Notes: generated from the letters alone by a model not told the origin. A stretch of DNA of 64,000 bases from Candidatus Omnitrophota bacterium (GCA_016201795.1 JACQCF010000002.1:45122-109121); one strand, 5' to 3'. Shown: positions 3,686-51,717, counted from the stretch's first letter. Translations and numbers: made by a program.

Positions 3686-4680
3686 TCATTTCCCGCACGC
3701 CTTTCCGTGTATCTTTTTTCGGCGGGGGCACAGACTACAACGGTTGGTTTCAAGAGCATAAAGGGGCGGTGCTTGCGACCACCATTGACAAGTACTGCTA
3801 CATCACTTGCCGTTACCTGCCGCCTTTTTTTGAACACAAGTCGCGCATTATTTATTCCAAAATGGAGCATGTGCACGGCATTGATGATATTGATCACCCT
3901 TCCGTACGTGAGGTGTTGCGTTTTTTAAACATCAAAGAAGGCATTGAAATCCACCACGATGGGGACTTGCCCGCCCGCACGGGTTTAGGATCCAGTTCTT
4001 CGTTTACAGTCGGGCTTTTGAATTCGTTATATGCCCTTAAAGGTGCGATGGTCACCAAAGAGCGTTTAGCGACAGAAGCCATTGATATTGAGCAAAACAG
4101 GATTAAAGAAAATGTCGGCTGCCAGGACCAGACCTTGGCGGCGTACGGCGGTTTTAATTACATCGAATTCGGCGGCCCCAACCATTTACGCGTACAGCCT
4201 TTGACAATATCCACGGCGCAATTGAACCTGCTGCAGGAGCATTTGATGCTGTTTTTTACCGGTTTTTCGCGCTCTGCCTCGCAAATTGCGGCGCATCAGG
4301 TTAAAAATATTCCTCATAAAAAAGCCGAACTGAATCGTATGTATGAGATGACGCAGGAAGCGGTGCAAATTCTCAACAGCAATAATTTGTTGGCTTTCGG
4401 CCGGCTGCTGGGTGAAGGCTGGAAATTAAAACGGACTTTGTCGGATAAGATTTCCACCGCCCATATTGATGAACTTTATGAGGGCGCCATCCGTGCCGGT
4501 GCCATCGGCGGCAAGCTGCTGGGCGCTGGCGGCGGCGGGTTCGTGCTGTTATTCGTCGAGCCGCAGAGAAAGCCTAAAGTCCGCGAAGCCTTAAAAAATC
4601 TTCTGGAAGTTCCCATCAAATTCGAGAATTTAGGCAGTCAGATTATTTTCTATCAACCCGACAGCGGTCTTGTGAAATAA
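3682..4680 (+). CDS. hddA: GHMP kinase, D-glycero-alpha-D-manno-heptose 7-phosphate kinase-like
   Basis: N-terminal RTPFRVSFFGGGTDY and GHMP ATP-binding loop PARTGLGSSSSFTVG. Adjacent to a sugar-1-P nucleotidyltransferase. Confidence 0.7.
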   Translation: MIISRTPFRVSFFGGGTDYNGWFQEHKGAVLATTIDKYCYITCRYLPPFFEHKSRIIYSKMEHVHGIDDIDHPSVREVLRFLNIKEGIEIHHDGDLPARTGLGSSSSFTVGLLNSLYALKGAMVTKERLATEAIDIEQNRIKENVGCQDQTLAAYGGFNYIEFGGPNHLRVQPLTISTAQLNLLQEHLMLFFTGFSRSASQIAAHQVKNIPHKKAELNRMYEMTQEAVQILNSNNLLAFGRLLGEGWKLKRTLSDKISTAHIDELYEGAIRAGAIGGKLLGAGGGGFVLLFVEPQRKPKVREALKNLLEVPIKFENLGSQIIFYQPDSGLVK

Positions 4681-6583: not shown

Positions 6584-7714
6584 ATGCGCATTGCCATCAA
6601 TGCCCGATCGATTCTTCTTGCCAACCGTACCGGTATCGGACGCTACACTTATCATCTTTTAAACAGTTTTGGGCAGATCGACCAGCAGAATGAATATTGG
6701 CTTTATGCCCGAAAAAATTTTTTCGACCGCAAACGCCGTTGGCCGCAATTTTCTTATCCCCATTTTAAAGTCAGGGCTGATGTTTTAGGTCTTGGCCCAG
6801 ACCGTTGTCTTAAGGGGGTAGATATTTATCACGCCCCAAGCCCGGAGGCGCTGACGATCCACGGCCCTAAGATCGTCGTGACCATCCATGATTTGATTTA
6901 CAAAATCCACCCCGAAACACACACCCTAGAAACGATTGAAGCCACCAGCCGGCAGATGGAGGGGATCATCAAGTTTGCCGATAGGATCATCTGTGTTTCT
7001 GGGAGCACCCGCCGTGACCTGCACCGGTTTTTTGGTTTACCTCAGGAAAAAAGTTGTATGATTTATAATGGTGTTGATCACAGCGTATTTTATCCGTTGC
7101 AGCCCGACGAGCGGCGTGCGGCTATGGACCGATTGAGGGGTTTGGGTATAAAGACACCTTATCTGCTTTACGTGGGAACTATTGAGCCTAGAAAAAATTT
7201 AACCGGTTTGCTCAAAAGCTTTGCTTTGTTAAAATCAAAAAAAGATTTCGCGGGTCAATTGGTGGTGGCGGGGATGAAAGGCTGGATGATGGCCGCGGTG
7301 GCGCCAATGATCAAGGAGTTGGGACTCAGGGATGAGGTGATTTTCACCGGTTTTGTCAGCGATGCGCAGCTGCGTGAATTGTACAATTTGGCCGAGGCGT
7401 TTGTCTTTCCGTCGCTGTATGAGGGGTTTGGTTTTCCCATTGTGGAAGCATTTTGCTGCGGGACGCCGGTGGTGACCTCTAACACGTCCTCCTGCGCAGA
7501 AATTGCGGGGGGCTGTGCTCTGACGGTAGATCCTCGACAAGTACCGCAAATAGCTCAGGCGATTCAACGGTTATTAGAAGACCGTGTGTTTAACCAAGAA
7601 TTGCGCCAAAAAGCCATCAAGAAAGCCCAGGAATTTTCTTTCCTGAAAACTGCCCAAGAAACCCTAAAAGTTTATGAACAGTTGGCTCCCTTGAAGGAGA
7701 GAGCTCATGCATAA
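6584..7714 (+). CDS. Family 4 glycosyltransferase (GT-B, retaining)
   Basis: C-terminal EX7E motif region FVFPSLYEGFGFPIVEAFCCGTPVV. Confidence 0.75.
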   Translation: MRIAINARSILLANRTGIGRYTYHLLNSFGQIDQQNEYWLYARKNFFDRKRRWPQFSYPHFKVRADVLGLGPDRCLKGVDIYHAPSPEALTIHGPKIVVTIHDLIYKIHPETHTLETIEATSRQMEGIIKFADRIICVSGSTRRDLHRFFGLPQEKSCMIYNGVDHSVFYPLQPDERRAAMDRLRGLGIKTPYLLYVGTIEPRKNLTGLLKSFALLKSKKDFAGQLVVAGMKGWMMAAVAPMIKELGLRDEVIFTGFVSDAQLRELYNLAEAFVFPSLYEGFGFPIVEAFCCGTPVVTSNTSSCAEIAGGCALTVDPRQVPQIAQAIQRLLEDRVFNQELRQKAIKKAQEFSFLKTAQETLKVYEQLAPLKERAHA

Positions 7715-9380
7715 TTTTTTAACACGATCACCGCGATGGACCGATGCCCTGATCTTAATTATTTTTACCATATTACTGACCATCCATCCCTATTACCTGA
7801 ATAACCGTATCAATGTGTTTGAATTGGGTATCTATTTGCCCGGTATCAATGCTATTTTGCACAGCATGGTACCTTTCAGGGACTTTTTCCATTTACGTGG
7901 GCCGCTGGAACTTTATGCACCGGTTTGGTTGATGAAAATATTCGGTGTCCATATGCAGGTCCTGTGTGCCTATTTTTATGTCGGTAATGTTTTGTGTTTG
8001 GTCATGATTGTTTTGATCGCCCGCGAGTTTATCCGTTCCAGGTATATCTTCTATATGATGATTCCCGTCATCATTGCCCGTACTTATCCCCGGGTAGTTT
8101 TTATGATCTGGGGAGGCATGCGTTATGCATTCGGATTGATGGCCATTTTTTGTTTGATCAAATTCTTAAAGAGCCGGCGATTATGGTGGATGGCGGGCGC
8201 AGGCCTCATGAGCGCATGGGCCGGATTAATCAGTATCGAAATGGGAGTTTATACGGTAGCTGCCATCCTGGGATGTCTTTTGGTTGCCTGGGTGGGGCGT
8301 TTCAAACCATCGGAAGAAACCGGGCGTGGTTTTATTTATTTTATAGGAGGAGGATTTTTAGGACTCGCTCCTTGGGTCATTTACAGCTTACAACAGCACG
8401 CTTTCCTTCCTTATTTGGATGCGGTGATGGCGGTGGTGGGCCCTAAATCATCGGTGCTCGATTCGCATTTGGTTTCTATTTATCCGCATAATTTTCCCGA
8501 AGCTTTCGCAGCCATGATTAATCCCGTCCATATCAATTTCAGGCACATGACACCTTCTTATACGTATTTATTCCTCTTAGGTTATTTGATTGTCCGATGG
8601 CGCAAAGGAGGGCGGGAGCCATGTGAACTTGGTCTTTGGGGCTTAGGGATTTACGGTTTTATTATGTACAATACCGCTTTTCGTGCCATCTGGGCTGCCC
8701 AATTTGAAATGGCTCTCATGCCCGAGAAGGTCATTTATTTCTTTTTAGTAGAAGCATTCGTTTTATGGTTATGGAGCAAAAGAGAGGCAGCGCCTGATTG
8801 GGGCAGATCCCTTATTTATATCTTTGTGATGGGATTATTCATTTTTTCTTGCGCCTACACCTTGCAGCGGTACCATAAACGCTTTTGGTCCTATCAATAC
8901 ACCCTTAATACTTTGACGGGCAAAAACAATGATTATCTCAAACGTTGGGATAAGCATGAACAATATGGTCAATTAAACATAGAGCGGGCCCGGGGAATCT
9001 GGGTTCCCGTTGATCAATATAATGACTTGAATCAAATATCCAATTTTATTACTCAAAAGACCAGTCCTGATGATGTCATTATGATGTTTCCGGAACTGGG
9101 GACGTACAACTTTTTATTTGACCGTCCCTTTTTGGGCCGTTTCCCCATTGTGACATTCACCTGGTTTAATGACCATTGGTTTGAGGAATACCTCGGCGAC
9201 CTCAAGTCTTTGAAAACCAATTACATCATTGTGCAGAAACGTATGCCCGAGGATTGGTACAAAGTATATCTGGGATATGCACCTAACAAAATTAAATATC
9301 AACAAATGCTAGAGACTATTCATCGTTTTTACGTACCTGTGGCCCAGACAGAGGCAACCTGGATTTATCAAAGGAAATGA
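7707..9380 (+). CDS. Large polytopic membrane protein, putative GT-C-type lipid-linked sugar transferase (paralog A)
   Basis: More than 10 predicted TM helices, a conserved acidic first loop (VPFRDFFHLRGP) and a roughly 170-aa C-terminal soluble domain. Clear paralogy with 10932-12623. Confidence 0.45.
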   Translation: MHNFLTRSPRWTDALILIIFTILLTIHPYYLNNRINVFELGIYLPGINAILHSMVPFRDFFHLRGPLELYAPVWLMKIFGVHMQVLCAYFYVGNVLCLVMIVLIAREFIRSRYIFYMMIPVIIARTYPRVVFMIWGGMRYAFGLMAIFCLIKFLKSRRLWWMAGAGLMSAWAGLISIEMGVYTVAAILGCLLVAWVGRFKPSEETGRGFIYFIGGGFLGLAPWVIYSLQQHAFLPYLDAVMAVVGPKSSVLDSHLVSIYPHNFPEAFAAMINPVHINFRHMTPSYTYLFLLGYLIVRWRKGGREPCELGLWGLGIYGFIMYNTAFRAIWAAQFEMALMPEKVIYFFLVEAFVLWLWSKREAAPDWGRSLIYIFVMGLFIFSCAYTLQRYHKRFWSYQYTLNTLTGKNNDYLKRWDKHEQYGQLNIERARGIWVPVDQYNDLNQISNFITQKTSPDDVIMMFPELGTYNFLFDRPFLGRFPIVTFTWFNDHWFEEYLGDLKSLKTNYIIVQKRMPEDWYKVYLGYAPNKIKYQQMLETIHRFYVPVAQTEATWIYQRK

Positions 9381-10099: not shown

Positions 10100-10935
10100 A
10101 AGTCAGCGCCTTTACCATTGTCCGCAACGCGGTCAAGTTCCATTACCCCATCGCTCAGTCCATACAATCGATTTTGCCCATTTGCGATGAATTTATCGTC
10201 AATGTGGGCGATAGCGAGGATAGAACGCTGGATTTGATCCGCTCCATCCCAAGCTCCAAAATTCGTATTATCCAAACCCAATGGAATATGAGGAAGGGCT
10301 CGATGGTCCTTTCCGAACAGACCAACATCGCCCTGAAAGAATGCAGAGGGGATTGGGCATTTTATCTGCAAAGCGATGAGGTGATCCACGAAAATGATTT
10401 GTCGCGCTTGAAGCAATGGATGCAGCGTTTCTTGAAAGTTGACGGAGTGGATGCCTTGCGTTTTAAATGGCTGCATTTTTACGGTAGTTATTGGCGCTAC
10501 CGCATTGATGCGGGGTGGTATCAGAAACAAGACCGTATTATCCGTAACAACGGCCAGATCGAATCCTATGGGGATGCGTTTGCGTTTAGGCGTCGTGACG
10601 GGCGGCCGCTATGCAGCCGGCCAACGGGGTGTTTATTGTACCATTACGGCTGGGTCAATACCGTCGAAGATATGAAGGGCCGCTGCCATAATGCGGCGCA
10701 AATCGGTTATCAGGATGCAAACAAATTACAATCGTTGGAAGGCGGTTGGGGAGACTTGAGCCGTTTCCCGGCGTATTTTGGTACGCATCCATTGGTCATG
10801 AAGGACTTGATTGCCAGGCATGCCCTCAGCGTGCAGGATTGGGCAAGTGTCAGCCGTCAATTTTGGTGGAACCCTCTGTTTTGGATGCGCCTGCGGCACA
10901 AGACATCCCGGCGTATCAGAGAGAAAATCACATGA
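10096..10935 (+). CDS. Putative GT-A fold glycosyltransferase (GT2-like)
   Basis: N-terminal FTIVRNA...IVNVGDSED resembles GT2 N-termini. A weak call. Confidence 0.4.
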   Translation: MKVSAFTIVRNAVKFHYPIAQSIQSILPICDEFIVNVGDSEDRTLDLIRSIPSSKIRIIQTQWNMRKGSMVLSEQTNIALKECRGDWAFYLQSDEVIHENDLSRLKQWMQRFLKVDGVDALRFKWLHFYGSYWRYRIDAGWYQKQDRIIRNNGQIESYGDAFAFRRRDGRPLCSRPTGCLLYHYGWVNTVEDMKGRCHNAAQIGYQDANKLQSLEGGWGDLSRFPAYFGTHPLVMKDLIARHALSVQDWASVSRQFWWNPLFWMRLRHKTSRRIREKIT

Positions 10936-12623
10936 GGGAAAATTTCTTTTTTAAAAAACCAACCGGTTGGGACGTGTTGGCCATGGCACTTTTGGTGGTC
11001 TTTGTCACATACCAGCCGTTTTATATGCAGCATGAGATTATCATGATGGAAACCGGTATTCATCTGCCGGCGATTAACGCGTTGTTTCATGGGTTGGTGC
11101 CATACCGTGATTTCTTTTTCTTGCGTGGGCCAATAGAACTTTATATACCTGCGGTCATGATGAAAATTTTTGGCGTTAATTCCGCCCTACTGCCGGCATT
11201 TTATTATGGAGGAACTATTCTGACCCTTATTTTATGCGTGATACTTGCCGGTGAGTTGTTTCGTTCACGTTTGATTCTTTATACCATGGTTCCGGTTTTT
11301 GTGGCCCGCACTTTCCCACGGATTGCTTATTATTATTGGGGAGGACTGCGTTACGCTATGGGGTTTTTGGTGCTATTGTTCCTGTTTTATTTTTTCAAAA
11401 CCCAGCGTCGCCGTTGGATTTTTTTAACGGGTATGATGTGCGCCTTATCCGCACTGACCACACCGGAGGCGGGGCTTTCCACAGTTTTAGCAGTGCTTGC
11501 GGCGTTGGTGTGTGCTTTTGGTTTTCAAGTCTGTGACCGGCATTTTCTGTGGCGATGTTTTTGGGTTTTTTGTGCCGGTTTCGCAATCGTCATTGTTCCT
11601 TATGTGGTGTATTTGATTCAAACCGGTTCTTTTCATGCATTGGTGGAGTCGACGTATGTGGTGGTAACACTCATGGTTGATGCGTTTCCAGGCGCTGCGG
11701 GCATTAAACCTGAAACACCTCTGCAGTTTTTAGTGGCCTGCATTCCTGGAACAAAATTTTTTAAATACATGAGTGTGCTGTGGTGCTATCTATTCTTTGC
11801 GGTGTTCTTGTGGTATAAAGCTCGTTATAAAAAGCTGGATTGGGTACACGCATTTCTGATAGGAGTTGCCGTTTATGGCTTGGTATTGTACGCGGCGGCG
11901 TTTCGTAAAATTGAAGGCCATCATTTTGAGATGGCCCTGCAGGTGGAGAAATTTATTTATTTCTTTTTGATGGAATGCGCCATACTGTATATGTGGACGC
12001 GGTGGGCAACGCTTCATATTACCTTTGCGTGGCGCCGGCGATTAGTTTATGGTATGGCCATGGGGGTATTCCTTTCTTCGGTCGCCTACGCGTTGAATAG
12101 ATTTGACCACCGTTTCACGATGATGAAGCTCATTGAGAGACAAGTTTTGCATAAAAAGAAAGTGAAAGGTTTATCAGTGCTGGAGGGTCAGGAAACTGCC
12201 GTTTTGAACATTGAGCGGGCCCGTGGCCATATTGTGCCCCGCTGGCAGGAAGAGGAGATCAAAGGGGTAGTTGAATTTTTAAAAATGCACACCCGCACTG
12301 ATGAAGCGGTTTTTTGCTTTCCTGAATTGGGGAATTTTAATTTTTGGGCGGATCGGCCCTTTGTCGGCCGTTTTCCGATTGTCACATTTACTTGGATGTA
12401 TGAGCCCTGGTATCAGGAACTTTTGGCGGATTTTCAAAAAACCAGGCCGCATTACGTGGTGATGACGCATTTAGGCCACCGGACTTTTCCGCAACTTTGG
12501 TATTTTCGTAATCCGCAAAACCAAGAGCGTTTTGAGCAAATGACACAGCTCATTTTAGCCAATTATGCGCCGGTCCAGTCATTTGAGTCGGTAGCCATTT
12601 ATGAACGCAAGGACAGGAGATGA
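10932..12623 (+). CDS. Large polytopic membrane protein, putative GT-C-type transferase (paralog B)
   Basis: The same architecture and conserved blocks as 7707-9380 (GIHLPAINALFHGLVPYRDFFFLRGPIELY; C-terminal FPELGNFNFWADRPFVGRFPIVTFTW). The start is placed at the internal ATG (MRENFFF) in ATGA overlap with the upstream stop, because the 5' extension of the ORF overlaps the preceding gene. Confidence 0.45.
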   Translation: MRENFFFKKPTGWDVLAMALLVVFVTYQPFYMQHEIIMMETGIHLPAINALFHGLVPYRDFFFLRGPIELYIPAVMMKIFGVNSALLPAFYYGGTILTLILCVILAGELFRSRLILYTMVPVFVARTFPRIAYYYWGGLRYAMGFLVLLFLFYFFKTQRRRWIFLTGMMCALSALTTPEAGLSTVLAVLAALVCAFGFQVCDRHFLWRCFWVFCAGFAIVIVPYVVYLIQTGSFHALVESTYVVVTLMVDAFPGAAGIKPETPLQFLVACIPGTKFFKYMSVLWCYLFFAVFLWYKARYKKLDWVHAFLIGVAVYGLVLYAAAFRKIEGHHFEMALQVEKFIYFFLMECAILYMWTRWATLHITFAWRRRLVYGMAMGVFLSSVAYALNRFDHRFTMMKLIERQVLHKKKVKGLSVLEGQETAVLNIERARGHIVPRWQEEEIKGVVEFLKMHTRTDEAVFCFPELGNFNFWADRPFVGRFPIVTFTWMYEPWYQELLADFQKTRPHYVVMTHLGHRTFPQLWYFRNPQNQERFEQMTQLILANYAPVQSFESVAIYERKDRR

Positions 12624-22083: not shown

Positions 22084-23070
22084 ATGCCTCAAATACGTAA
22101 AGATTTCATCGTCAATCGTTGGGTGATTGTGGCTACCGAGCGGGGGCGTCGTCAGGCCGCGTTTGTGAGTCCGGTCAATCAGCAAACAGATCCTCACGAT
22201 TGTCCGTTTTGTCAGCCGATCGCTGACACTCCGCTTTTAGCCAACGACCGGGTGAGGGTTTTTAAAAGCGGCACACCTTTTTTTGTGGATGGAAAGCCTT
22301 TCAGCCGCCAGAGGCATGGCTTGTATGAAGTTTCTTCCAGCTGGGGCAGTCACGAGGTAGTTTTGGAAACCACTGATCACGTGGCCAATATGTCTGACTT
22401 GGCCCTTGAGGATATTCAGAAGGTTTTTGAAACCTATGCCCAGCGGATGCGCCTGCACCGCCAGGATCCGTCGATTCGTTATGTATTGGCTTACAAAAAT
22501 TACGGGGTTGCTGCCGGCAGCCGTCCTATCGGGCATGCCCGTTCGCAGATTATGGCTATTCCCGTTAATCCCGTGCGCGTCAAAGATAAAATCAGCGGCG
22601 CCAAACGTTATTTCGATTTTCATGAACGCTGCCTGTTTTGCGATTTGATTGATCAGGAACGTAAAGACGGCCAGCGCTTGATTCTGGAAAATGGAGAATT
22701 TTTGGCGCTGATGCCATTTGCCTCGCGGTTTCCTTTTGAAGTCTGGATTGTGCCCAAACGCCATTGTTGTGATTTTGCCCAAGGGATTACCGGCTATGAA
22801 GGTCAGTTGGCTCAAATAATCAAAGAACTTTTGCTGCGTTTTAAAGTGGGCCTTAATGACCCGGCTTATAATTATCTGATTCAGTCCGCTCCTTTTGAAG
22901 ATGGTGGCGGGTACAAAGAATACCCGACCATTGAAGAAGATTATCACTGGCATATCGAATTACTGCCGCGGTTAATGCGAGTGGCTGGTTTTGAGCGCGG
23001 GACAGGATTTTATATTAATCCCATTCCACCGGAGATGACGGCAGAGTTTTTAAGGGAAGTGAAAATTTAA
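22084..23070 (+). CDS. Galactose-1-phosphate uridylyltransferase-like HIT-superfamily protein (paralog 1; nucleophilic His replaced by Arg)
   Basis: CPFC zinc motif. The HxHxQ active-site block reads GHARSQ, so the position of the nucleophilic His (E. coli GalT H166) is Arg. Confidence 0.65.
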   Translation: MPQIRKDFIVNRWVIVATERGRRQAAFVSPVNQQTDPHDCPFCQPIADTPLLANDRVRVFKSGTPFFVDGKPFSRQRHGLYEVSSSWGSHEVVLETTDHVANMSDLALEDIQKVFETYAQRMRLHRQDPSIRYVLAYKNYGVAAGSRPIGHARSQIMAIPVNPVRVKDKISGAKRYFDFHERCLFCDLIDQERKDGQRLILENGEFLALMPFASRFPFEVWIVPKRHCCDFAQGITGYEGQLAQIIKELLLRFKVGLNDPAYNYLIQSAPFEDGGGYKEYPTIEEDYHWHIELLPRLMRVAGFERGTGFYINPIPPEMTAEFLREVKI

Positions 23071-23073
23071 TCC

Positions 23074-24072
23074 ATGCCTCAACTGCGTCGAGACCCAATA
23101 GTAGGCCGCTGGATAGTGATCGACAGCGATCATCCCAAAGAGCCAAAAGATTTTCCCAAAGAAGATCAAACGCCGTCTCATGCCGCGGTATGTCCGTTTT
23201 GCCCGCAGCGGGAGAGCCGCACGCCGCCAGAACTGGATGCCGTACGCCCCAACGGATCCGGGCCTAATACCTCTGACTGGCAGATACGCACTATACCTAA
23301 TAAGTTTCCCGCTTTGGTTCATGAAGAGCCTATGGAAAAAGAAGGGATAGGGATGTTTGATGTGATCTCCGGCTACGGCGCCCATGAGGTGGTTATTGAA
23401 ACGCCTGATCATAACAGACAAATGGCGGATCTCACCATCCAGGAATTGGTACTTGTTTTAAATCAATACCAGCGTCGCTATAAAGCTTTAGCTTCTGATG
23501 CGCGGCTAAAATACATCGTGATTTTTAAAAATTTCGGCCCCTCCGCCGGAGCGACCATCGAGCACAGCCATTCGCAGGTCATTGCTTTGCCCATGGTGCC
23601 CAAAACGGTGTTGGAAGAAATAGAGGGGGCTGAGCATTATCATCTGAGCCACGGTGCTTGTGTGTTTTGCACGATGTTAGCCCAAGAATATCAAGACAAA
23701 GATCGTCTGATATCAGAGAATAATTCTTTTGTTAGTTTTTGTCCGTTCGTGCCGCGGTATGCTTTTGAGACGTGGATGATGCCCAAAGCCCATCAGGCGC
23801 ATTTTGCCGATCTCAATGAGCAGGGAGTTCATGATCTGGCTTCTGGGCTTTTGGATACGTTAAACCGCATCAAAAAATGTTTATCGAACCCATCCTATAA
23901 TTTTTATTTGCATACCTCACCGATCAATTACGGCCGGCCCAACTGTTACCACTGGCACATTGAAATTATCCCCAAATTGACCCGCAGCATCGGTTTTGAA
24001 TGGGGCACGGGCTTGCACATTGTGCCGACGTTTCCCAATGAAGCCGCTCGGTATTTAAGGGACGCTAGATAG
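23074..24072 (+). CDS. Galactose-1-phosphate uridylyltransferase-like HIT-superfamily protein (paralog 2; intact HxHxQ)
   Basis: CPFC zinc motif and an intact EHSHSQ (HxHxQ) motif. In tandem with paralog 1, with a 3-nt gap. Confidence 0.7.
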   Translation: MPQLRRDPIVGRWIVIDSDHPKEPKDFPKEDQTPSHAAVCPFCPQRESRTPPELDAVRPNGSGPNTSDWQIRTIPNKFPALVHEEPMEKEGIGMFDVISGYGAHEVVIETPDHNRQMADLTIQELVLVLNQYQRRYKALASDARLKYIVIFKNFGPSAGATIEHSHSQVIALPMVPKTVLEEIEGAEHYHLSHGACVFCTMLAQEYQDKDRLISENNSFVSFCPFVPRYAFETWMMPKAHQAHFADLNEQGVHDLASGLLDTLNRIKKCLSNPSYNFYLHTSPINYGRPNCYHWHIEIIPKLTRSIGFEWGTGLHIVPTFPNEAARYLRDAR

Positions 24073-24110
24073 TTCTTGAAAGTTTATAGGGCCGGTTATA
24101 CAATTCAACT

Positions 24111-24479
24111 ATGTTTCAACGATGGATAGTTATCAGCGTAATAGCAAGTTTTCTTTTTATCTTACTGACAACGGCTTGGGATTATTGCCCCGCGAAACCG
24201 GGCCATCATTTCACGCCACGACTTTCTTCTATTTACGGTAATCAGTTTAAAGCCGTCCATCATCCGTGCACTTCACTCAAAGATGTTTATGAGATGTTGT
24301 CTGGTGTCTTCAGCATTGTCCCATCGGTGAACAAGGAGTCTCTAACTCTGCCGCTGATGGCGGCAGTTTTTTCTCTATCAATCAAGCATTCTCCTCATGC
24401 GTATGATCGTCCACCACCGTTAGCTTCTCCTCCATCAGCAGTTCCTTTGTTTCAACTCTACTGCAATCTCCGCATTTAA
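24111..24479 (+). CDS. Hypothetical small protein with an N-terminal hydrophobic segment
   Basis: The ORF sits in a 520-bp gap between GalT-2 and the RND gene, with an N-terminal TM/signal-like stretch (IVISVIASFLFILLTTAW). No recognisable motifs. It may be non-coding. Confidence 0.2.
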   Translation: MFQRWIVISVIASFLFILLTTAWDYCPAKPGHHFTPRLSSIYGNQFKAVHHPCTSLKDVYEMLSGVFSIVPSVNKESLTLPLMAAVFSLSIKHSPHAYDRPPPLASPPSAVPLFQLYCNLRI

Positions 24480-24593: not shown

Positions 24594-27500
24594 ATGAAAC
24601 TTGAAGAATTCTCACTCAAACAGCCACATTGGGTTATTGTCGGGGCCCTTTTGGTGGTTATTATTGGCGTAGTCTGCATGACCAGGCTCCCTAAAGATAT
24701 TTTACCCATTTTTAAAATTCCGGCCGTACAAATCATTACGTTTTACCCGGGAATGCCCGCGGAGGTCGTCGAGAAAGATATGACCACCCGCCTTGAACGC
24801 TGGACGGGTCAATCCAATGGAATAGCCATGCAAGAATCCAAATCCATGATTGGGGTGAGCATCCTGAAAGATTTTTTTCGATCCGATATTGATCCAAATA
24901 CCGCCATGTCGCAGGTCACGTCCTTTGCGATGTCCGATCTTTATTATCTGCCACCGGGGACAATTCCTCCGATGGTTATGCCTTTTGATCCGACGGCAAG
25001 CATTCCATTGGCTCTTTTGACCGTTGAGAATCCTGACATGAATGAAACCCAGCTTTATGACGTGGCGTATTTTAATTTGCGCAATATGCTTCAGGGCATC
25101 CCCGGTGTCATTGCGCCGGCGGTTTACGGCGGTAAGCTCCGTCGTATTTTGGCCTATATTGATCCCTACAAAATGACCCAGCTCAATGTTTCAGGACTTG
25201 ATGTTGTTCAAGCTCTTCTTGAGTCCAATGTCATGATTCCCACGGGAAACGCGAAGTTCAAAGACAAGGACTATCAAATCATTACCAATGCCATGCCCGA
25301 GAACGTTGATACCATGAACCAATTTTTGATAAGAGGAGAAAATGGCGTTCCAATAACAATAGGAGACGTGGGAAAGGTCGAAGACAGTCATCAAATCCAG
25401 ACCAACGTGGTTCATATCGCGGGTAAACGGCAGGTCTATATTCCTATCTACAGACAGCCAGGCGCCAATACGATTCAAATTATTGACAGCATGAAATCTG
25501 CCATCCAATCCCTGTTAGAACGGCTCCCCAGGGGAATGAGTTTGAAAATTGTCGCCGATCAATCGCAGTTTGTTCGCCAGTCGATCAAAAGTATTTATAG
25601 TGAAGTGGGGTTGGGAGGCGTTTTGGCTTCCCTGGTTGTCTTGATTTTTTTAGGAAGCTTGCGAGCTTCTTTCGCTGTTTTTCTTTCTATTCCTCTTTCC
25701 ATCTTGACGTGTTTTATCGCTCTTTATGCCACAGGAGAAACGATTAACGCAATGACGTTAGGAGGATTGGCTTTGGCCGTTGGAATCCTCATTGATAATT
25801 CCGTGGTTGTTTTGGAGAATTCGATCCGTCATTTCAAAATGGGGAAACCCATTCGGCAAGCCATTTTAGAGGCCACAGGTGAAGTGGCGATGCCTGTTCT
25901 GGCGGGTACGGTCTGTATTATCATCGTATTTATTCCCATTATTTTTTTTACCGGAATCGGTAAGTTTCTGTTTACGCCTTTAGCAAAAAGCGTGGCTTTT
26001 TCCGTCTTGGCCTCTTATGTGGTTTCTATGACGATCATTCCATTATATTGTGTGAGATTTATTTCAGAAAAGCATCGTGAAAAATCATCAGAAAAGGGAC
26101 ATGAAGGAAGATTCAATCGGTTTGCCCAGCGTTACCAAAAGTCCCTTTCTTCTCTAATGAAGATAAAAGGTGTTGTTATTTTTGCGGCGGTCATACTTTT
26201 TTGTGCCAGTCTCTTTCTTTATCCGTTCATCGGGAAAGAGCTTTTCCCTCGTTCAGATGTCGGTTACTTGACCCTTTATTTACATCTTCCGACCGGAACT
26301 CGTATTGAAAAAACCGAAGAGACCATGAAAAAAGTTGAACAGAGTTTAAATAATCTAATCAACACCAATAACATTGACACGATGATCACGAATATCGGCG
26401 TTTTATATGATTGGCCAGCAGCCTATACGCCCAATTCAGGCCCCGGAGATGCGTTTGTTGAATTGGAATTATCGCATAAAAAGAAATTCTCAACGGAGGA
26501 ATATGCAACTAAGATTCGGGAATTATTTAAGCGGGAATACCCGGATATCCAGATTGCCATTAATACGGGGGGGCTCATTACGGCTGCTCTTAATATGGGA
26601 CTTAGTTCGCCGATTAATATTCAAGTCGAAGGCAAGGACTTAAAGACTTCGATGCCGATTGCCGAGGAAATTGTTAAGCAAGCAAAGGAAGTTAAGGGAG
26701 CAGTTGACGTCAGGATTCAGGAGCATCTTGATTATCCACAAATTGAAATTGAATTAGACCGTGCTGTGATTGCCGAGAAGCGTATGACCGTTGAAGAGGT
26801 CGTCAAAAACATCGTAACGGCGCTTAATTCCAGCGTCAATTTCAAAGCATCATTCTGGATCGATCCTAAAAATGGGAACCATTATTTTCTTGGAGCGCAA
26901 TATCCTGAGGAATTAATTAAGAGTATAGAGACGTTGGAAAATCTCCCATTGACAGGAAAGAATCAGAAACAGATCGTCCTTTTAAAAGAGATTGCCAAAT
27001 TCAAAGAAACTTCGGCTCCATCGGAAATTAGGCATAGAAACATTCAGAGGGTTGTGAATATTTTTGTCAACACCAGCGGCCGGGATGTGGGGGCAGTCGC
27101 TTCCGAGATCAGCCAGCGTATCAAAGATATTAAATTGCCGGATGGATATCGCATTAATGAACGGGGAGAAGTTCAATCAATGCAGGAGTCGTTTCAAAAC
27201 CTCGGCGGCGGTCTGATGTTGGCTGTGATTTTGGTTTACCTCGTCTTGGTCGGGCAGTTTCGTTCATTCCGCGATCCCTTATTAATTCTCATCGCTGTTC
27301 CGATGGGGTTGATCGGAGTTCTACTGACATTGTGGTTAACCAAAACAACGCTTAATGTTCAATCTTTTATTGGAATTATTTTTATGGTGGGGATTGCTGT
27401 TTTAAACGGTATTCTCCTTATTGAATTTGCCAATCGCTTAAAAAGTGAAGGGCAAAGTGCTCAAGAGGCCGTAATTAATGCGGCCGGAGTCCGATTGCGG

Positions 27501-29036
27501 CCTATCCTTATGACGACATGTGCCGCTTTGTTTAGCTTGCTTCCTATGGCTATTGGGTTGGGGCATGGTTCTGAAGCTAATGTACCTTTAGGACGTGCTG
27601 TGGTCGGAGGACTTTCGGTTTCCGCAGTATTGACGTTGATCATTCTTCCCTTGCTTTACGTTCTTGTTGAAAAAATGAAGTTTTCTAAAACCAGCAACCC
27701 TCTGGTTAAAATCATGTTTATATTTTTTGTTATGAGCTTCATCTCAACCACTACCTTTGCTGAAGATGCGCAGGCTTCTGCCAAAGGGAAAGTTTTAACA
27801 CTGCAAGAGGCGTTGGAAAAATCGCTCAGTCAAAATCCTAAGATCATGATCGCCAAAGCCAAGACCGCCCAAGCCCAGGCGGAGGTTGATATGGCTAAGT
27901 CAGGGTATTGGCCGCGGCTGAATTTATCGGCAATGGATAGCTACGGTCTTGGGAGTTCTTCATCAGCCATCGGAATCACAGGAGTTGTCAATTCTACTCA
28001 CCGTAAAGGCGGTGCCGTTGGGGTAGATAGCGCCTGGACGATTTATGATTTCGGTCGCACCTCCAATAAGGTACAGGCCGCTCGAGAGGAAGCCCAGGCC
28101 CAGGATAAGGACATGGAACGGCAAATGGCGCAGATAAAGCTTATGATTAGCCGTACCTACGGGGAATGCGCGTTTTATACAGGATTCAATCATCTTTTGA
28201 CAGATAGGATAGAACGCCAAAAGCTCCTGGTTGAGGAAATTCAAAAATACACCCGTTCGGGCTTAAATTCTCAGGTCGATCTAAAATTGATGCAGGCGGC
28301 TTTTGAAAAAACTCGTGCTATACAAAGAGAATCCGAGGGATTTTTATATCAGTCCATCGATAAACTTAAAGAGTGGATGGGAGACTCTCATATGGAATCA
28401 TTTGTCTGTGTGCCTTTGCCTGAGATATCCACAGAAGTTCTAGCGTTAGATGCATTGATTACGCAGGCATTGAAGGAACGTCCGGAAATCAAAACAGCCC
28501 AAAAGCATTATGAAGCGGCACAGGCTTCCCGGTGGTCAGCAGAAGGTGAGCATGCACCAAAGATTGTAGCGGTCTCAAGTGTCGGTGAATTAGAGAAGAC
28601 CGACCCAGCTGGGGGGGATCAATGGTCGGCCGGTATCGGGGTTACGGTGCCTTTTTTCGATGGATTTCTAACCGAGGCTAAAATCGCCAAGGCCAAAGCG
28701 CAAGAGGCGGAAGCCAAAGCCTCCTTGGAAGAGGTACGTAATCAGATCCAGCAGGAAGCAGCTTCCTCTTATGCCCAATGGCAAGCAGCCCAACAGATGC
28801 GTCCAATAGTAGAGAAACAATATCAATTAACGAAAGAGGCTTATGATTTGGCGCATCACCGCTATACCGGGAAAATGGGAACGTTTATCGATTTACAAAA
28901 TGCCGAATCTGCTTTTGCTCAAGCCCAGCAGGAAAGTCTGAAGGCACAAATTCAGGAACGGCTGTCTTATTATCAGCTTTTTATTGTTAGCGGAATGAGC
29001 GTGTCCGTTGTCAAAGACAGTGATCAAAATAGATAG
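24594..29036 (+). CDS. RND (AcrB/HAE-family) inner-membrane permease fused in frame to a TolC-like outer membrane efflux protein
   Basis: Residues 1-1027 have 12 TM helices with two large periplasmic loops (AcrB/CzcA fold). From the ATG at 27675 there is a signal-peptide-like MKFSKTSNPLVKIMFIFFVMSFISTTTFA, then a two-repeat OEP/TolC domain. There is no stop codon between the two parts. Confidence 0.75.
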   Translation: MKLEEFSLKQPHWVIVGALLVVIIGVVCMTRLPKDILPIFKIPAVQIITFYPGMPAEVVEKDMTTRLERWTGQSNGIAMQESKSMIGVSILKDFFRSDIDPNTAMSQVTSFAMSDLYYLPPGTIPPMVMPFDPTASIPLALLTVENPDMNETQLYDVAYFNLRNMLQGIPGVIAPAVYGGKLRRILAYIDPYKMTQLNVSGLDVVQALLESNVMIPTGNAKFKDKDYQIITNAMPENVDTMNQFLIRGENGVPITIGDVGKVEDSHQIQTNVVHIAGKRQVYIPIYRQPGANTIQIIDSMKSAIQSLLERLPRGMSLKIVADQSQFVRQSIKSIYSEVGLGGVLASLVVLIFLGSLRASFAVFLSIPLSILTCFIALYATGETINAMTLGGLALAVGILIDNSVVVLENSIRHFKMGKPIRQAILEATGEVAMPVLAGTVCIIIVFIPIIFFTGIGKFLFTPLAKSVAFSVLASYVVSMTIIPLYCVRFISEKHREKSSEKGHEGRFNRFAQRYQKSLSSLMKIKGVVIFAAVILFCASLFLYPFIGKELFPRSDVGYLTLYLHLPTGTRIEKTEETMKKVEQSLNNLINTNNIDTMITNIGVLYDWPAAYTPNSGPGDAFVELELSHKKKFSTEEYATKIRELFKREYPDIQIAINTGGLITAALNMGLSSPINIQVEGKDLKTSMPIAEEIVKQAKEVKGAVDVRIQEHLDYPQIEIELDRAVIAEKRMTVEEVVKNIVTALNSSVNFKASFWIDPKNGNHYFLGAQYPEELIKSIETLENLPLTGKNQKQIVLLKEIAKFKETSAPSEIRHRNIQRVVNIFVNTSGRDVGAVASEISQRIKDIKLPDGYRINERGEVQSMQESFQNLGGGLMLAVILVYLVLVGQFRSFRDPLLILIAVPMGLIGVLLTLWLTKTTLNVQSFIGIIFMVGIAVLNGILLIEFANRLKSEGQSAQEAVINAAGVRLRPILMTTCAALFSLLPMAIGLGHGSEANVPLGRAVVGGLSVSAVLTLIILPLLYVLVEKMKFSKTSNPLVKIMFIFFVMSFISTTTFAEDAQASAKGKVLTLQEALEKSLSQNPKIMIAKAKTAQAQAEVDMAKSGYWPRLNLSAMDSYGLGSSSSAIGITGVVNSTHRKGGAVGVDSAWTIYDFGRTSNKVQAAREEAQAQDKDMERQMAQIKLMISRTYGECAFYTGFNHLLTDRIERQKLLVEEIQKYTRSGLNSQVDLKLMQAAFEKTRAIQRESEGFLYQSIDKLKEWMGDSHMESFVCVPLPEISTEVLALDALITQALKERPEIKTAQKHYEAAQASRWSAEGEHAPKIVAVSSVGELEKTDPAGGDQWSAGIGVTVPFFDGFLTEAKIAKAKAQEAEAKASLEEVRNQIQQEAASSYAQWQAAQQMRPIVEKQYQLTKEAYDLAHHRYTGKMGTFIDLQNAESAFAQAQQESLKAQIQERLSYYQLFIVSGMSVSVVKDSDQNR

Positions 29037-35202: not shown

Positions 35203-36048
35203 TTAGCGGCGGACCTCTTTCAGGATAATGTCCGTCGGAGAAATTTTATTGAGGGTATAGAAGTGCAGGCCGGGGGCACCTTGATCAAGAAGCTCTCGGC
35301 ATTGCTCAACAGCAAAACGAATACCTGCCTCTAATGTTTTAGCCGGATCATCTGCGAGGGGTTTAAAAATCTCATGGACCTTCACCGGGATAGAAGCCCC
35401 GCAGAGTAAGCAAAATCTCACCAAAGCCTGATAATCGGTAATAGGTAAAATTCCGGGAATAACGGGTTTGTTCACACCTAATTTTTTCAAACGCGCGATA
35501 TAATCAAAATAATCCTGATTGTCAAAAAAAAGCTGGGTGATGACGTAATCCGCTCCCGCATCAATTTTGGCTTTGAGATGCTGCGCGTCCACCTCGCGAT
35601 TGGGGGCTAACATATGCCCCTCGGGGAAACCGGCCACTCCAATGCCAAAATAAGAGTTAAAATGTTGACGGATAAAGGCCACCAGCTCACTGCTGTATCG
35701 AAAGTTTTTTGGCCCCGGCTTCCAGTCGGGATGATCTTTGGGAGGGTCTCCCCGCAAAGCCAGGACATTGCTGATTCCCCGGCGTTTGATCTCTTCGAGA
35801 ATCGTTTTAATTTCGTCTTTGGTATGTAGGACACAGGTTAAGTGAGCCACCGCCTTGATATGATGTTTATTTTGAATATGTTCTACAACGTCCAATGTTT
35901 TCTCGCGGCTGCCGCCTCCGGCGCCGTAGGTACAGGAGATGAAATCCGGTTTTAAGCCAGCTAGCTGATCAATGATCCCCAGCAATTTCACGTACCCCTC
36001 GGGGGTTTTGGGGGGGAAGAGTTCAAAAGAAATAGTGGGAAAGTTCAT
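35203..36048 (-). CDS. metF: 5,10-methylenetetrahydrofolate reductase
   Basis: N-terminal NFPTISFELFPPKT and the LRGDPP FAD-binding signature. The start is placed at the ATG at 36048-36046, overlapping the stop of the upstream membrane gene. Confidence 0.88.
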   Translation of the reverse strand: MNFPTISFELFPPKTPEGYVKLLGIIDQLAGLKPDFISCTYGAGGGSREKTLDVVEHIQNKHHIKAVAHLTCVLHTKDEIKTILEEIKRRGISNVLALRGDPPKDHPDWKPGPKNFRYSSELVAFIRQHFNSYFGIGVAGFPEGHMLAPNREVDAQHLKAKIDAGADYVITQLFFDNQDYFDYIARLKKLGVNKPVIPGILPITDYQALVRFCLLCGASIPVKVHEIFKPLADDPAKTLEAGIRFAVEQCRELLDQGAPGLHFYTLNKISPTDIILKEVRR

Positions 36049-37142
36049 CGATATGCGCCTGTTGGCATATTCCATTTAATTTTATTTAGGAAAAAGATGA
36101 AGATAGGATCCCAACACCAACCAGTGAAGAGGGGAAAAATAGCCATGACCCACACATATTGGCGCTGGAGAAACCAATAGCCGGTTACAGCATCTGCAAT
36201 CATTAATAACAGGATCGGCAAAATAAAAATAGTCATTAAGAAACCAGCTACGATCAAACGGTCTTGTTTGGGCCACCATAACCGTAGCGCAATCCCGATT
36301 AACAGTAAATAGAAGAGTTTAAATCCGATTAAATTGGTCATTACTGCTTTTAGAAAATTAATCGGATCTACCAAGGGGTTAGGAATAAACTGAAAAACAT
36401 CAAGTTCGAGGTACCTATGGTTATAGAAGGGGCTGGATGGATTGCCTTTATTATAGTAGAGCCATAGAAGTAACCCAACAAAGCTTAAGCTTAACCAGAA
36501 ACGCCAGCGGCGTTGAATGAACGGGATAAATCCTGTTTGCCGATAATCCCTTAATAAGAAAAATAATCCCCAGCAACATATGATGAGCAAGCCATACGGA
36601 TGATAAATGATTGTTAGAATTAAAGCGATCCAATATAAGATACATTGCATCCGTGAGGGGGATAGTAAGGGATTCATAAGGCTTTCAAGGATGTAGAAGG
36701 TGGAAAGCCCTAAGGCGGCCAGCATGCTATAGGGCCTAAGCTGCAGGGCATGATAAATCAGTTGTCTGTGCAATGCAAACATGGCAAAGGTCATTAGCCA
36801 ACTGAGGGGGTGTTTGAGATAGCGTTGGCAAAGTAACCCCAGCACATAGAAGCCTAACAGGGTTGATAAGAAATGGGGGATTGCCACTCCCCATTTGTTC
36901 TCTTTGAAGATTTGTATAAAAGGATAGGTGAGTAGGTAATCGCCGGGAAAAGAATGCGATTCGCCGTAATCAGCCGTAAGCCAAAATGGCTTAAGGGGCC
37001 CCACCGTATGTTTATATTGGCACAATTCATCTGTAGACCATTCGTGCTGCCTGTAGATATCTATGCGCCACCAAAGACCGAGCAAGGTAATAACGAAAAC
37101 AGAGATTAGCAACCATTTAGGCGGGGATGATATTTTTTGCAC
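36045..37142 (-). CDS. Hypothetical polytopic membrane protein (GT-C-like topology), co-transcribed with metF
   Basis: An N-terminal TM, then an acidic loop (WSTDELCQYK...ADYGESHSFPGDY), then at least 9 TM helices. Its stop overlaps the metF start (ATGA). Confidence 0.4.
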   Translation of the reverse strand: MQKISSPPKWLLISVFVITLLGLWWRIDIYRQHEWSTDELCQYKHTVGPLKPFWLTADYGESHSFPGDYLLTYPFIQIFKENKWGVAIPHFLSTLLGFYVLGLLCQRYLKHPLSWLMTFAMFALHRQLIYHALQLRPYSMLAALGLSTFYILESLMNPLLSPSRMQCILYWIALILTIIYHPYGLLIICCWGLFFLLRDYRQTGFIPFIQRRWRFWLSLSFVGLLLWLYYNKGNPSSPFYNHRYLELDVFQFIPNPLVDPINFLKAVMTNLIGFKLFYLLLIGIALRLWWPKQDRLIVAGFLMTIFILPILLLMIADAVTGYWFLQRQYVWVMAIFPLFTGWCWDPIFIFFLNKIKWNMPTGAYR

Positions 37143-50106: not shown

Positions 50107-51717
50107 TTGGACGTGTTTATGGATTTATTTCAAAAATTCAACAGGGTTTATGCGAAGGCAAAGCATTATTGCAGCAGCTTTGTCATAGATCCTCATTCAT
50201 TGAGGTTCATTCGTTATAACAAAAGCATCTGGCGGGATTATAAAAATAAGAATCCGCAGGGCATTGTTTTGTTTTATTATTTTGATATCCCTTCCGCTTT
50301 GATTAGTGGCAGTTATTTTACCAATCTTCTTGTCAAGAAACATAATGCCCAGATCGTGGCGTTTTCTTCCACCCGCAAGGGGTTTCCATGGGGTATTTTC
50401 TATTGGAAGCGCGACATGGTTTATCGTTCGTTTAATACGCAAAAGATTATTGGTACGGTATTAGACCGATCACAGGAATTACGCAAGCAACATATCTACC
50501 AGGATATAATCAAGGGTATCAAGACAAAGAAAGATGTGTACGATATTAAAGTGGATGGTGTTTGGATCGGGGTTGATATCTATGAGACTTATTTGCGGAT
50601 ATGCCGTAAGCCTACCGTAGATTTAGATGATCCTAGGCTTTTTAGAATGATTAAAGAAGGGGTGGGGATTTATTTGTTTTGGCGGGACTATGTCGCCAAG
50701 AATCAGGTCAAGGCCATCGTCGTTAGTCACGATGCTTACATTTACGAAAATATACTTTGTAAAATCGGATATAAAAATAATATTCCTGTTTATATGCCTA
50801 ATATCAGGGGGTTATGGTTTGCCAAAACGGTTTATTCGGCGACTAATCCTTTGTTTAAGAATTATCGTGCAATGTTTAGGAGACTTTCCCTTCAAGAGCA
50901 GGCCAAAAGCTTAGAGCTTGCTAAATGTCAGTTGCAACGTAGGCTGGCAGGAGAGACTGGCGTTGACATGGCCTATTCGCTCAAGTCCGCTTTTAGCTTA
51001 CCCAACAAGTCAGAACAGGTGCTGCGCAAGAGCGATAAGATCAAGGTCCTTATTTGCAGCCACTGTTTTTATGATAATCCCCAAGCGTACGGTGAAATGC
51101 TGTTTATCGACTTTTACGACTGGCTTTGTTTTTTAGGAAAAATATCTCAAGAGACCGATTACGATTGGTATATCAAAATGCATCCAGATCCTTTGCCTGG
51201 GACGGATCAGATTATCCGGGAGATTATTGCCAAATATCCTAAGATCACTTTTATACCTCCTGAAACATCCCATCTTCAACTGGTTTCGGAAGGTATCAAT
51301 TTTGTTTTGACCGCCTATGGGTCAGTCGGGCATGAGCTTGCTATGTTAGGGGTTCAGGTGATTAATGCCGGTTATAATCCGCATTCTGCCTACGATTTTA
51401 ACTGGCACCCGCAGTCTCTTGCTGAGTATGAGAATTACCTTCTACACCTAGATCAATTGAAAAAAGAAATTTCCAAGGAAGATGTTTATGAATTTTATTA
51501 CATGCATTATTACTATACGATCGCTGACGGTCTTTTTTTAAAATCTTACCGTCAATATATCACCGAATCTACAAAGAATCAGGAACCAGGAATTGTTGTT
51601 TATGAACATTTTTTAAAAGACATTAACCGGCAGAAGCATCAAGAAATTTGTACTAGTTTATTGCAATTTATTGAATCTGGAAAGAACTATTATTTAAGCA
51701 GAGGATTAGAAAATTAA
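50107..51717 (+). CDS. Hypothetical protein, possible GT-B-like capsule or nonulosonic-acid transferase
   Basis: 536 aa. The C-terminal half has a Rossmann-like alternation (KIKVLICSH..., FVLTAYGSVGHELAMLGVQVIN) reminiscent of TagF/KpsS-type transferases. No firm motif. Confidence 0.3.
   Translation: MDVFMDLFQKFNRVYAKAKHYCSSFVIDPHSLRFIRYNKSIWRDYKNKNPQGIVLFYYFDIPSALISGSYFTNLLVKKHNAQIVAFSSTRKGFPWGIFYWKRDMVYRSFNTQKIIGTVLDRSQELRKQHIYQDIIKGIKTKKDVYDIKVDGVWIGVDIYETYLRICRKPTVDLDDPRLFRMIKEGVGIYLFWRDYVAKNQVKAIVVSHDAYIYENILCKIGYKNNIPVYMPNIRGLWFAKTVYSATNPLFKNYRAMFRRLSLQEQAKSLELAKCQLQRRLAGETGVDMAYSLKSAFSLPNKSEQVLRKSDKIKVLICSHCFYDNPQAYGEMLFIDFYDWLCFLGKISQETDYDWYIKMHPDPLPGTDQIIREIIAKYPKITFIPPETSHLQLVSEGINFVLTAYGSVGHELAMLGVQVINAGYNPHSAYDFNWHPQSLAEYENYLLHLDQLKKEISKEDVYEFYYMHYYYTIADGLFLKSYRQYITESTKNQEPGIVVYEHFLKDINRQKHQEICTSLLQFIESGKNYYLSRGLEN

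Follow-up and report, generated by a model that had tools for sequence, protein, structure and literature searches.

An RND permease and a TolC-like outer membrane factor in one reading frame, joined by a predicted internal signal peptide, at loci without an adaptor gene

INTRODUCTION

How is an efflux pump built when its inner membrane permease and its outer membrane duct share one reading frame and no gene for the periplasmic adaptor lies beside them? According to a review of resistance-nodulation-division (RND) pumps, the adaptor is their universal scaffold and is needed for duct opening; MtrC is required for MtrE to open, and BesA, which has no hairpin, is listed as the most aberrant adaptor known (PMC8277102). 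The question is raised by a stretch of 64,000 nucleotides (nt) from Candidatus Omnitrophota bacterium (GCA_016201795.1, JACQCF010000002.1:45122-109121), which we call the window and whose coordinates are counted from its first letter. On its plus strand, positions 24594 to 29036 encode an RND permease followed by a TolC-like outer membrane factor (OMF). The initial annotation of this sequence had offered three explanations: a genuine inner-outer membrane fusion in which the internal signal peptide serves as a 13th transmembrane helix (TM13), two genes of which the second is made by internal initiation, or a lost stop codon. Here we compare this gene with its relatives and argue that it is probably a selected fusion that encodes a precursor to be cut in two.

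RESULTS

One reading frame for permease and duct

Translation gave one continuous 1480-codon frame and a product of 1480 amino acids (aa), hereafter the query. Pfam ACR_tran matched residues 5-1025 (profile positions 3-1020 of 1021, E = 1.7e-221) and Pfam OEP matched two stretches of the C-terminal part (E = 7.3e-43). The layout was as initially annotated: the permease ends after TM12 (...LLYVLVEK), an ATG at 27675 is the next codon, and a signal-peptide-like segment and a two-repeat OEP domain follow with no intervening stop. The junction DNA reads GTT GAA AAA ATG AAG. The NCBIfam matches to RND_permease_2 and to the TolC family (TIGR01844, 1.3e-43) were both under the curated cutoffs, and by these profiles both halves appear divergent yet unmistakable. 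The NCBI nr database holds an identical 1480-aa protein from a Candidatus Omnitrophica metagenome-assembled genome (MAG; 162-kb contig), labelled "efflux RND transporter permease subunit."

The RND part is full length, with the 12-TM architecture and two large periplasmic loops, and is collinear with ZneA, MdtB, CmeB, CusA, and AcrB. Its closest solved relatives are ZneA (1.7e-98) and MdtB, with about equal scores, followed by CmeB, CusA, and AcrB. The OMF part is collinear with residues 42-427 of OprN and also aligns with OprM, SilC, and CusC. In an AlphaFold2 (AF2) model of the signal peptide plus OMF (alignment of 22 sequences, pLDDT 83, model numbering), a signal-peptide helix (9-27) and a low-confidence linker (24-37) precede a fold with four strands (81-90, 111-124, 296-306, and 317-324) and two helices of 67 residues (128-194 and 332-398), which we take to be the length of the long helices of TolC. 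Foldseek returned TM scores of 0.73-0.76 to TolC (1ek9), OprN (5iuy), VceC (1yc9), and CusC (3pik). As modelled, the C-terminal part is a complete TolC-fold protomer of normal length, with nothing added to it.

Conservation of the fused frame

The query junction contains a homopolymer (GAAAAAATG) at which a one-base error could fuse two overlapping genes, so that the frame might merely record a stop lost to sequencing or assembly error, or a recent inactivating mutation, and not be a functional unit. A homology search returned 22 full-length two-domain proteins of 1453-1547 aa, with identities to the query from 89% to 43%, in NCBI, JGI, ENA, and Logan assemblies, and all were collinear through the junction. 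For the junction itself we compared 25 fused sequences from independent assemblies, of which 20 were full-length proteins and five were loci. All 25 keep the same frame over that range of identity, and their junction DNA differs (GAG AAG TGG AAG in L001, for instance) with none carrying a homopolymer. Both halves are also strongly conserved: within clade A, one of the two fused clades described below, the RND parts are 60-93% identical, and the OMF fold is intact. GC content of the fused loci ranges from 42 to 68.5%. Since the same frame recurs in 25 independent sequences and the relatives have no homopolymer at the junction, loss of the stop through sequencing error is excluded, and the fusion is a genuine and conserved gene. 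We give almost no credence to an artefact or a decaying gene, and the lost-stop explanation falls, whereas the fusion itself has held up at orthologous loci. Programmed slippage at the A6 run was rejected as well because the relatives do not have the run.

Further fused genes were found in a scan of one genome per species, in Omnitrophota MAGs (L008, L009, and L011) and in an Elusimicrobia-labelled MAG (L010). Among the database proteins matching the OMF part, six shorter ones are RND-OEP fusions whose N terminus is cut off by the contig end. P0121, seemingly a free OMF that is 50% identical to the OMF part, likewise proved to be a fragment of a fused gene, its open reading frame (ORF) being open to base 1 of L090.

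The junction and its predicted signal peptide

Residues 1028-1056 (MKFSKTSNPLVKIMFIFFVMSFISTTTFA) begin with a Lys-rich stretch, continue with an uncharged core, and end in T-F-A ahead of an acidic EDA; the layout is KFSKTSNPLVK, then IMFIFFVMSFIS, then TTTFA/ED, with the slash marking the predicted cut. The segment has the positive n-region, the h-region (about 7-15 residues in the criteria used), and the small residues at -3 and -1 of a Sec substrate of signal peptidase I (SPase I). As an export signal it is of the TolC type, with AxA and without a lipobox Cys, and it is internal where such signals are N terminal. The OEP domain begins about 10-11 residues past the cut.

The same features recur in every fused sequence, with cut sites assigned by eye throughout. 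All 25 keep a short basic loop past TM12, then a core of roughly 12-20 uncharged residues, a c-region that contains Pro, Gly, Ser, or Thr, and an acidic or polar residue after the cut. At -1, 23 sequences have Ala, one has Gly, and one has Ser; the -3 residue is always small or aliphatic; and the OEP start motif LTLxEAL lies about 5-15 residues beyond the cut. Separately encoded OMFs in sister operons carry N-terminal signal peptides of this same layout.

The codon at the junction is not kept. Met occurs there only in the query and P0002, and the others have V, L, W, I, T, D, Q, R, P, K, S, or G. These data bear on internal initiation, in which ribosomes would start at ATG 27675 and give the OMF a signal peptide at its N terminus in the usual way, leaving the read-through fusion as a by-product. 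The idea draws on the junction ATG of the query and P0002, on the complete signal peptide directly after it, and on the HAE1-type fusion described below, in which a Met also opens the internal signal peptide; moreover, one A fewer in the A6 run would create an ATGA stop/start overlap, which suggests a route by which the fusion originated. Against it, relatives 63-80% identical have GTA (L008 and L090), ATT (L009), or TGG (L001 and L011), and all distant members have a codon other than Met. The OMF start codon thus seems to have decayed while the features of the signal peptide were kept, and because it decayed, internal initiation is not something that selection has maintained. Translation of the full length would in any case bring the same signal peptide to Sec, and cleavage would follow anyway. 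No Shine-Dalgarno-like motif was found in the 20 nt upstream of the junction ATG; this absence proves little, because such motifs were found for only 23 of 40 window genes, and about 40%, the RND start among them, do without. We consider internal initiation an unlikely account of the family: it fails as a conserved mechanism, and in the query, with its ATG, it could still contribute.

The adaptor gene and the origin of the fusion

Next, we examined whether an adaptor gene is present. A membrane fusion protein (MFP) profile was built from three adaptors of sister operons and then from 74 sequences and was run against six-frame translations at E<=1. Neither version had a match anywhere in the window, and the 74-sequence profile had none in the sequence flanking L001, L002, L004, L008, L009, L010, and L012; as a positive control, the MFP profile detected the adaptor of a paralogous pump at 7e-39. 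Precomputed Pfam annotation likewise contained no adaptor in L001, L002, L004, L088, or L094. The absence of an adaptor gene upstream and downstream, noted in the initial annotation, thus extends to the 64-kb window and, at the loci examined, to the whole clade.

The nearest unfused RND proteins (about 57% identity) lie in operons ordered RND-MFP-OMF. This order was seen at about 65 fetched loci in species-representative genomes of Acidobacteriota, Planctomycetota, Verrucomicrobiota, Nitrospirota, and others. By this comparison RND-MFP-OMF appears to be the ancestral operon, and the fused gene appears to be the same operon minus the adaptor gene and the RND stop codon. Two loci have lost the adaptor gene and keep separate genes. 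L012 has a TAG stop at the end of its RND gene, and its OMF ORF follows 4 nt on, with the signal peptide ...LALLLISGLAFA/QDQ. In L088 (the locus of P0116), the OMF start lies within the RND 3' end in another frame, with the signal peptide MRYFIRIRFISIQRFLVTLFLITNSGVTPLSYA/DD.

In a neighbor-joining tree of the RND part (200 taxa, 200 bootstraps), all adaptor-less members, namely fused clades A and B, L012, P0116, and P0042, were grouped in 192 of 200 bootstraps. Clade A joined L012, and clade B joined P0116 and P0042, each in 200 of 200. The tree indicates, so far as gene order and sequence can tell, that the adaptor gene was lost once and that genes were fused or split at least twice afterwards. 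On this topology, fused and separate forms can evidently replace each other within one clade, as would be expected if the fusion product is cut. Earlier neighbor-joining trees had implied two unrelated fused clades, a result now overturned: they lacked L012 or counted the unfused adaptor-less members as outsiders. P0116 and P0042, which had been taken for unfused intruders, turned out to lack an adaptor gene as well. The OMFs of the fused clades are all about 22-25% identical to the operon OMFs, and these values were of no help in deciding between one fusion and two. At the P0042 locus (L089 744-5669), the RND gene is followed by a DNA-methyltransferase-like gene and there is no OMF, which makes it an orphan permease or a disrupted locus.

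Fusion in other RND genes

RND-OMF fusions were also found in an HAE1-type family about 25% identical to the query (P0198, P0280, and P0281, of 1447-1449 aa; P0280 has 1449 aa). They come from three independent metagenome contigs ("Deltaproteobacteria" MAG; L095 564-4910, L096 2155-6501, and L097 8001-12350), have the DD of TM4 intact, and carry a full signal peptide at the junction (...WRRFFTMRSSLAKTILVPVFIISLYLSHGFA/EERKPLSLDE). Here an adaptor gene stands directly upstream (MFP, then RND-OMF), and in L097 (adaptor 6925-8004) it overlaps the fused gene by 4 nt. Sequence and gene order show the HAE1-type fusion as an independent origin, with fusion and adaptor loss as separate events. It also calls for cleavage independently, since a pump bridged by an adaptor cannot work with its duct tied to its permease.

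At L086 (9983-14296, Ferruginibacter MAG), an RND of the same family as the query is in frame with an adaptor (ACR_tran plus HlyD_D23, 1438 aa). This junction keeps the complete lipoprotein signal peptide of the adaptor (MKLKNINLIIIPFALLLLTSC) with the lipobox LLLLTSC; it is a single example and may be a sequencing error. Separately, P0283 is a 572-aa product with both domains on a 1-Mb contig.

Proposed maturation of the fused product

We propose that this is a true fusion, maintained by selection, whose product is a precursor polyprotein from which the TolC part would be exported and released by SPase I; on balance we think this probable. The 12 RND helices would insert cotranslationally and leave the C terminus in the cytoplasm; in AcrB structures, the even number of helices puts the C terminus inside. 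The Lys-rich loop of 12 residues would remain inside, and the 13th hydrophobic segment would engage SecYEG as an internal (N-in/C-out) signal sequence, so that the OMF part is threaded into the periplasm. SPase I would then cut after Ala1056 (T-F-A/E-D). The freed OMF would go to BAM and trimerize in the outer membrane, and the signal peptide would stay on the permease as a short C-terminal 13th helix. Pump and exit duct would then necessarily be made 1:1 (3:3) from a single message, with the two bridged afterwards either by direct docking or by an adaptor encoded elsewhere. We favor cleavage because the cleavage-type motif is conserved, the linker has about 10 residues, and fused and unfused forms interconvert freely.

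Alternatively, the protein could stay whole, with a permanent TM13 and the TolC domain tied to the permease, so that one chain would span the envelope and work without an adaptor. The continuous and conserved frame, the adaptor gene missing from the window and related loci, and a 1:1 stoichiometry that suits a 3:3 complex would all agree with such a machine, and the uncharged stretch of about 17 residues could cross a bilayer. The linker, however, is only about 10 residues long, and neither the OMF nor the RND part has compensating insertions. In solved OMFs and TolC the N terminus is at the equatorial domain, presumably more than 100 A from the inner membrane by our estimate, and since about 10 residues would have to span that distance, a permanent covalent tether to the permease is geometrically implausible. 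A plain anchor also gives no reason for a conserved Ala at -1 and a helix-breaking c-region; in unfused members of the clade, the same segment is an ordinary N-terminal signal peptide; and the HAE1-type fusion retains its adaptor, so fusion is no replacement for one. We regard a permanently joined protein as improbable. Of the inner-outer membrane fusion initially suggested, the genuine fusion stands, and the permanent TM13 is the less likely form given the cleavage motif, the short linker, and the interconversion.

Several points weigh against cleavage as we propose it. Cleavage is predicted from sequence, with a cut site placed by eye, and the 17-residue uncharged stretch could still span the membrane. 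The query has ATG as its junction codon, and internal initiation could also yield some OMF. The phylogenies are neighbor joining only, and the first analysis, which lacked the unfused adaptor-less members, left the two fused clades apart.

How the freed duct would meet the permease is a separate matter. Clade-specific insertions or deletions of more than one residue were not found in the RND part when adaptor-less members were compared with the rest, and compensating changes sought in the adaptor-less members, a longer duct or a remodelled docking domain, were not found either. These members share one fixed substitution, N to E at 799 (AcrB 803, in the DC subdomain), and show a few sites with altered conservation, too little to speak for or against direct docking. 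That the clade runs a true two-component pump, in which permease and duct dock directly and there is no periplasmic adaptor anywhere in the genome, is an idea we put forward tentatively and hold to be rather doubtful.

The TM4 charge motif

The TM4 segment reads LAVGILIDNSVVVLEN. In an alignment with Escherichia coli AcrB, D401 and N402 fall on D407 and D408, which bears out the Asp-Asn pair that the initial annotation had read in place of Asp-Asp. E408, L937, R967, and T974 fall on E414, K940, R971, and T978, respectively. The query does not have the full AcrB relay set (D407, D408, K940, R971, and T978): two of its positions are taken by N402 and L937.

Among 120 family members, D401 is invariant (120/120); at position 402, 86 members have D, 23 (all of them unfused) have Q, 7 have N, and 4 have Y. 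Of the 86 sequences with Asp402, 85 carry Arg or Lys a helical turn before it, at 398, and all 34 sequences with another residue at 402 have Leu, Ile, or Pro at 398. The equivalent of K940 is Ser, Ala, Leu, or, once, Arg. This covariation suggests that Arg398 and Asp402 are gained or lost together and that the relay of this family is unlike that of AcrB. Because position 402 varies among D, Q, N, and Y together with 398 and the K940 equivalent is missing family-wide, Asp-Asn looks like ordinary family variation and no sign of an inactive pump.

Neighboring genes

The features of the gene and of three small or adjacent genes are listed in Table 1. Upstream of the fused gene lie priA, fmt, two GalT-like genes, and the 122-aa ORF, and downstream lie the YHS-like ORF, the DUF255 gene, which encodes a thioredoxin-fold protein, gap, and metE; no adaptor is among these neighbors.

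Table 1. Positions of the parts of the fused gene and of genes next to it in the window
Feature	Coordinates	Strand	Details
Small conserved partner gene, 122 aa	24111..24479	+	N-terminal TM helix, DYC motif, invariant Cys in HHPC, PPP stretch
RND permease part, aa 1-1027	24594..27674	+	Stops directly past TM12 (...LLYVLVEK); Pfam ACR_tran
TM4 charge motif I398-L-I-D401-N402	25785..25799	+	Equivalent to AcrB L404...D407-D408
Predicted internal signal peptide, aa 1028-1056	27675..27761	+	Basic loop MKFSKTSNPLVK, core IMFIFFVMSFIS, c-region TTTFA
Predicted SPase I cut after Ala1056	between nt 27761 and 27762	+	Site assigned by eye
Mature TolC-like OMF, aa 1057-1480, plus stop codon	27762..29036	+	Pfam OEP, TIGR01844, AF2, Foldseek
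Small secreted YHS-like protein, CPVC motif, 105 aa	29100..29417	+	Own N-terminal signal peptide; membership in the system uncertain
DUF255 / Thioredox_DsbH protein, 746 aa	29423..31663	+	Pfam E 9.7e-78; thioredoxin fold plus six-hairpin domain

The 122-aa protein, with the C terminus ...PLFQLYCNLRI, has relatives of 114-137 aa that share a DYC/LHC motif and end in ...PLFQLYCNLRI or ...PLLI. Homologues lie directly upstream of the fused gene in clade A (L001 9510-9881, L002 9581-9925, L008 163-537, L009 9479-9889, and L010 ~4152-4511). There are only 10 database homologues and no Pfam family, and at least two of the homologues are on contigs equal in size to fused-gene contigs. Only its TM helix, residues 2-22, was confident in an AF2 model. 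The exact window sequence is absent from the protein collection and may never have been called as a gene. A promoter-like site (24076-24104, a 10/12 match to a sigma-70-like pattern) stands just ahead of this ORF, and the best terminator-like hairpin of the region (24348-24366; 8-bp stem with 6 GC pairs and a T-run) lies within it; each could be due to chance.

The YHS-like protein matched Pfam YHS and the NCBIfam model YHS_seleno_dom (1.1e-07), both below cutoff, and a gene of this kind between the pump and the DUF255 gene was not found at other loci. DUF255 homologues are directly downstream of the pump in L002/L003 (L002 14368-16566), L004 (14410-16851), and L012 (6838-9162), translationally coupled to the pump through a 4-nt overlap in L002 and L004, and they also adjoin nine adaptor-containing operons (L013, L015, L021, L022, L030, L055, L080, L081, and L087). 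In L004, the DUF255 protein is fused to DsbD_N, and a DsbD_TM gene follows. Genes for an extracytoplasmic function (ECF) sigma factor and a zf-HC2 (zinc-binding) anti-sigma factor are directly upstream of the unfused adaptor-less pumps of L012 (969-2296) and L088 (6603-7960), and in the adaptor-containing L005 (1781-3184), a 260-aa gene that matches DUF3379 only faintly comes after an ECF sigma gene. Such a regulator, which the window lacks, may be ancestral. Other genes that recur nearby encode thioredoxin, DsbD, an ArsP-type permease, and a MerA-like protein. The DUF255/thioredoxin/DsbD, ECF-sigma/anti-sigma, and MerA-like neighbors are hints of thiol- or metal-related stress.

O-antigen ligase and sugar-modification genes in the window, and a porin gene in L001, are consistent with a diderm envelope. 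Two tandem, diverged GalT/HIT-like genes (galactose-1-phosphate uridylyltransferase family) occupy 22084-24072, just upstream of the pump region. Elsewhere, four ORFs of 365-625 aa without a Pfam match at E<=1e-5 (7707-9380, 10746-12623, 50107-51717, and, on the minus strand, 36045-37142) lie in an apparent polysaccharide/O-antigen cluster with Wzy_C, DegT, epimerases, radical SAM, and methyltransferases.

DISCUSSION

In a monophyletic group from phylogenetically broad uncultured bacteria (Omnitrophota and others), the adaptor gene has been dropped from the operon and pump and duct share one frame. Our literature search found no description of a natural RND-OMF fusion or of an RND-OMF pump without an adaptor, and nothing relevant on efflux in Omnitrophica. 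What makes the finding most interesting is that RND and OMF might form a pump independently of any adaptor. If the adaptor is indeed missing, the group is a natural test case for direct docking of RND and OMF, and a two-component pump would, if true, overturn the rule that the adaptor is needed for RND-OMF assembly and duct opening. If an adaptor is supplied in trans, this would still be a rare case of a bacterial outer membrane protein made as the tail of an inner membrane polyprotein and released at an internal signal peptide. The same junction recurs independently in an RND family unrelated to this one, which suggests that 1:1 synthesis of subunits is enforced in a general way that has been overlooked. 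Such genes now carry only the name "RND permease subunit," which is a matter for annotation.

Like AcrAB-TolC, MexAB-OprM, CusCBA, and ZneCAB, the query has a full-length AcrB-type permease (with D407, E414, R971, and T978 equivalents) and a canonical TolC-fold duct, and its sister operons encode all three parts. It differs from these systems in that permease and duct are one gene and the adaptor gene is off the locus clade-wide, as well as in the Asn at the D408 equivalent and the K940 equivalent missing from the entire family.

The cytochrome b-c1 precursor FbcH of Bradyrhizobium japonicum (Thony-Meyer and others, 1991) is reportedly cleaved after translocation into two subunits of the complex. 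Like the query, it joins a polytopic inner membrane protein, an internal signal peptide, and an exported partner in one ORF, and the query shows this layout in its polytopic part ending after TM12, its Lys-rich loop, its signal peptide, and its OMF. Both products of FbcH stay at the inner membrane and their cleavage is demonstrated, whereas the OMF of the query must reach the outer membrane and its cleavage is deduced.

Thermus SecDF is an RND-superfamily gene fusion (PMC8277102) in which, as in the query, a partner is fused to an RND-type C terminus; unlike the query, it consists of two inner membrane halves and has no internal signal peptide. In Borrelia burgdorferi BesABC, the adaptor BesA is without an alpha-hairpin and the usual hairpin tunnel is missing, implying closer or direct RND-OMF contact (PMC8277102). 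The likeness is that of a natural RND system in which pump and duct are not joined by the customary tunnel of adaptor hairpins; BesA is still in its operon, however, whereas the query locus shows no adaptor gene and has RND and OMF translationally fused. The L086 gene belongs to the same RND family as the query and keeps the signal peptide of the partner at its junction, with the adaptor fused rather than the duct. The HAE1-type fusion shares with the query both its architecture and its signal-peptide junction (GFA/EE); unlike the query, it has the DD of TM4 intact and has retained its adaptor.

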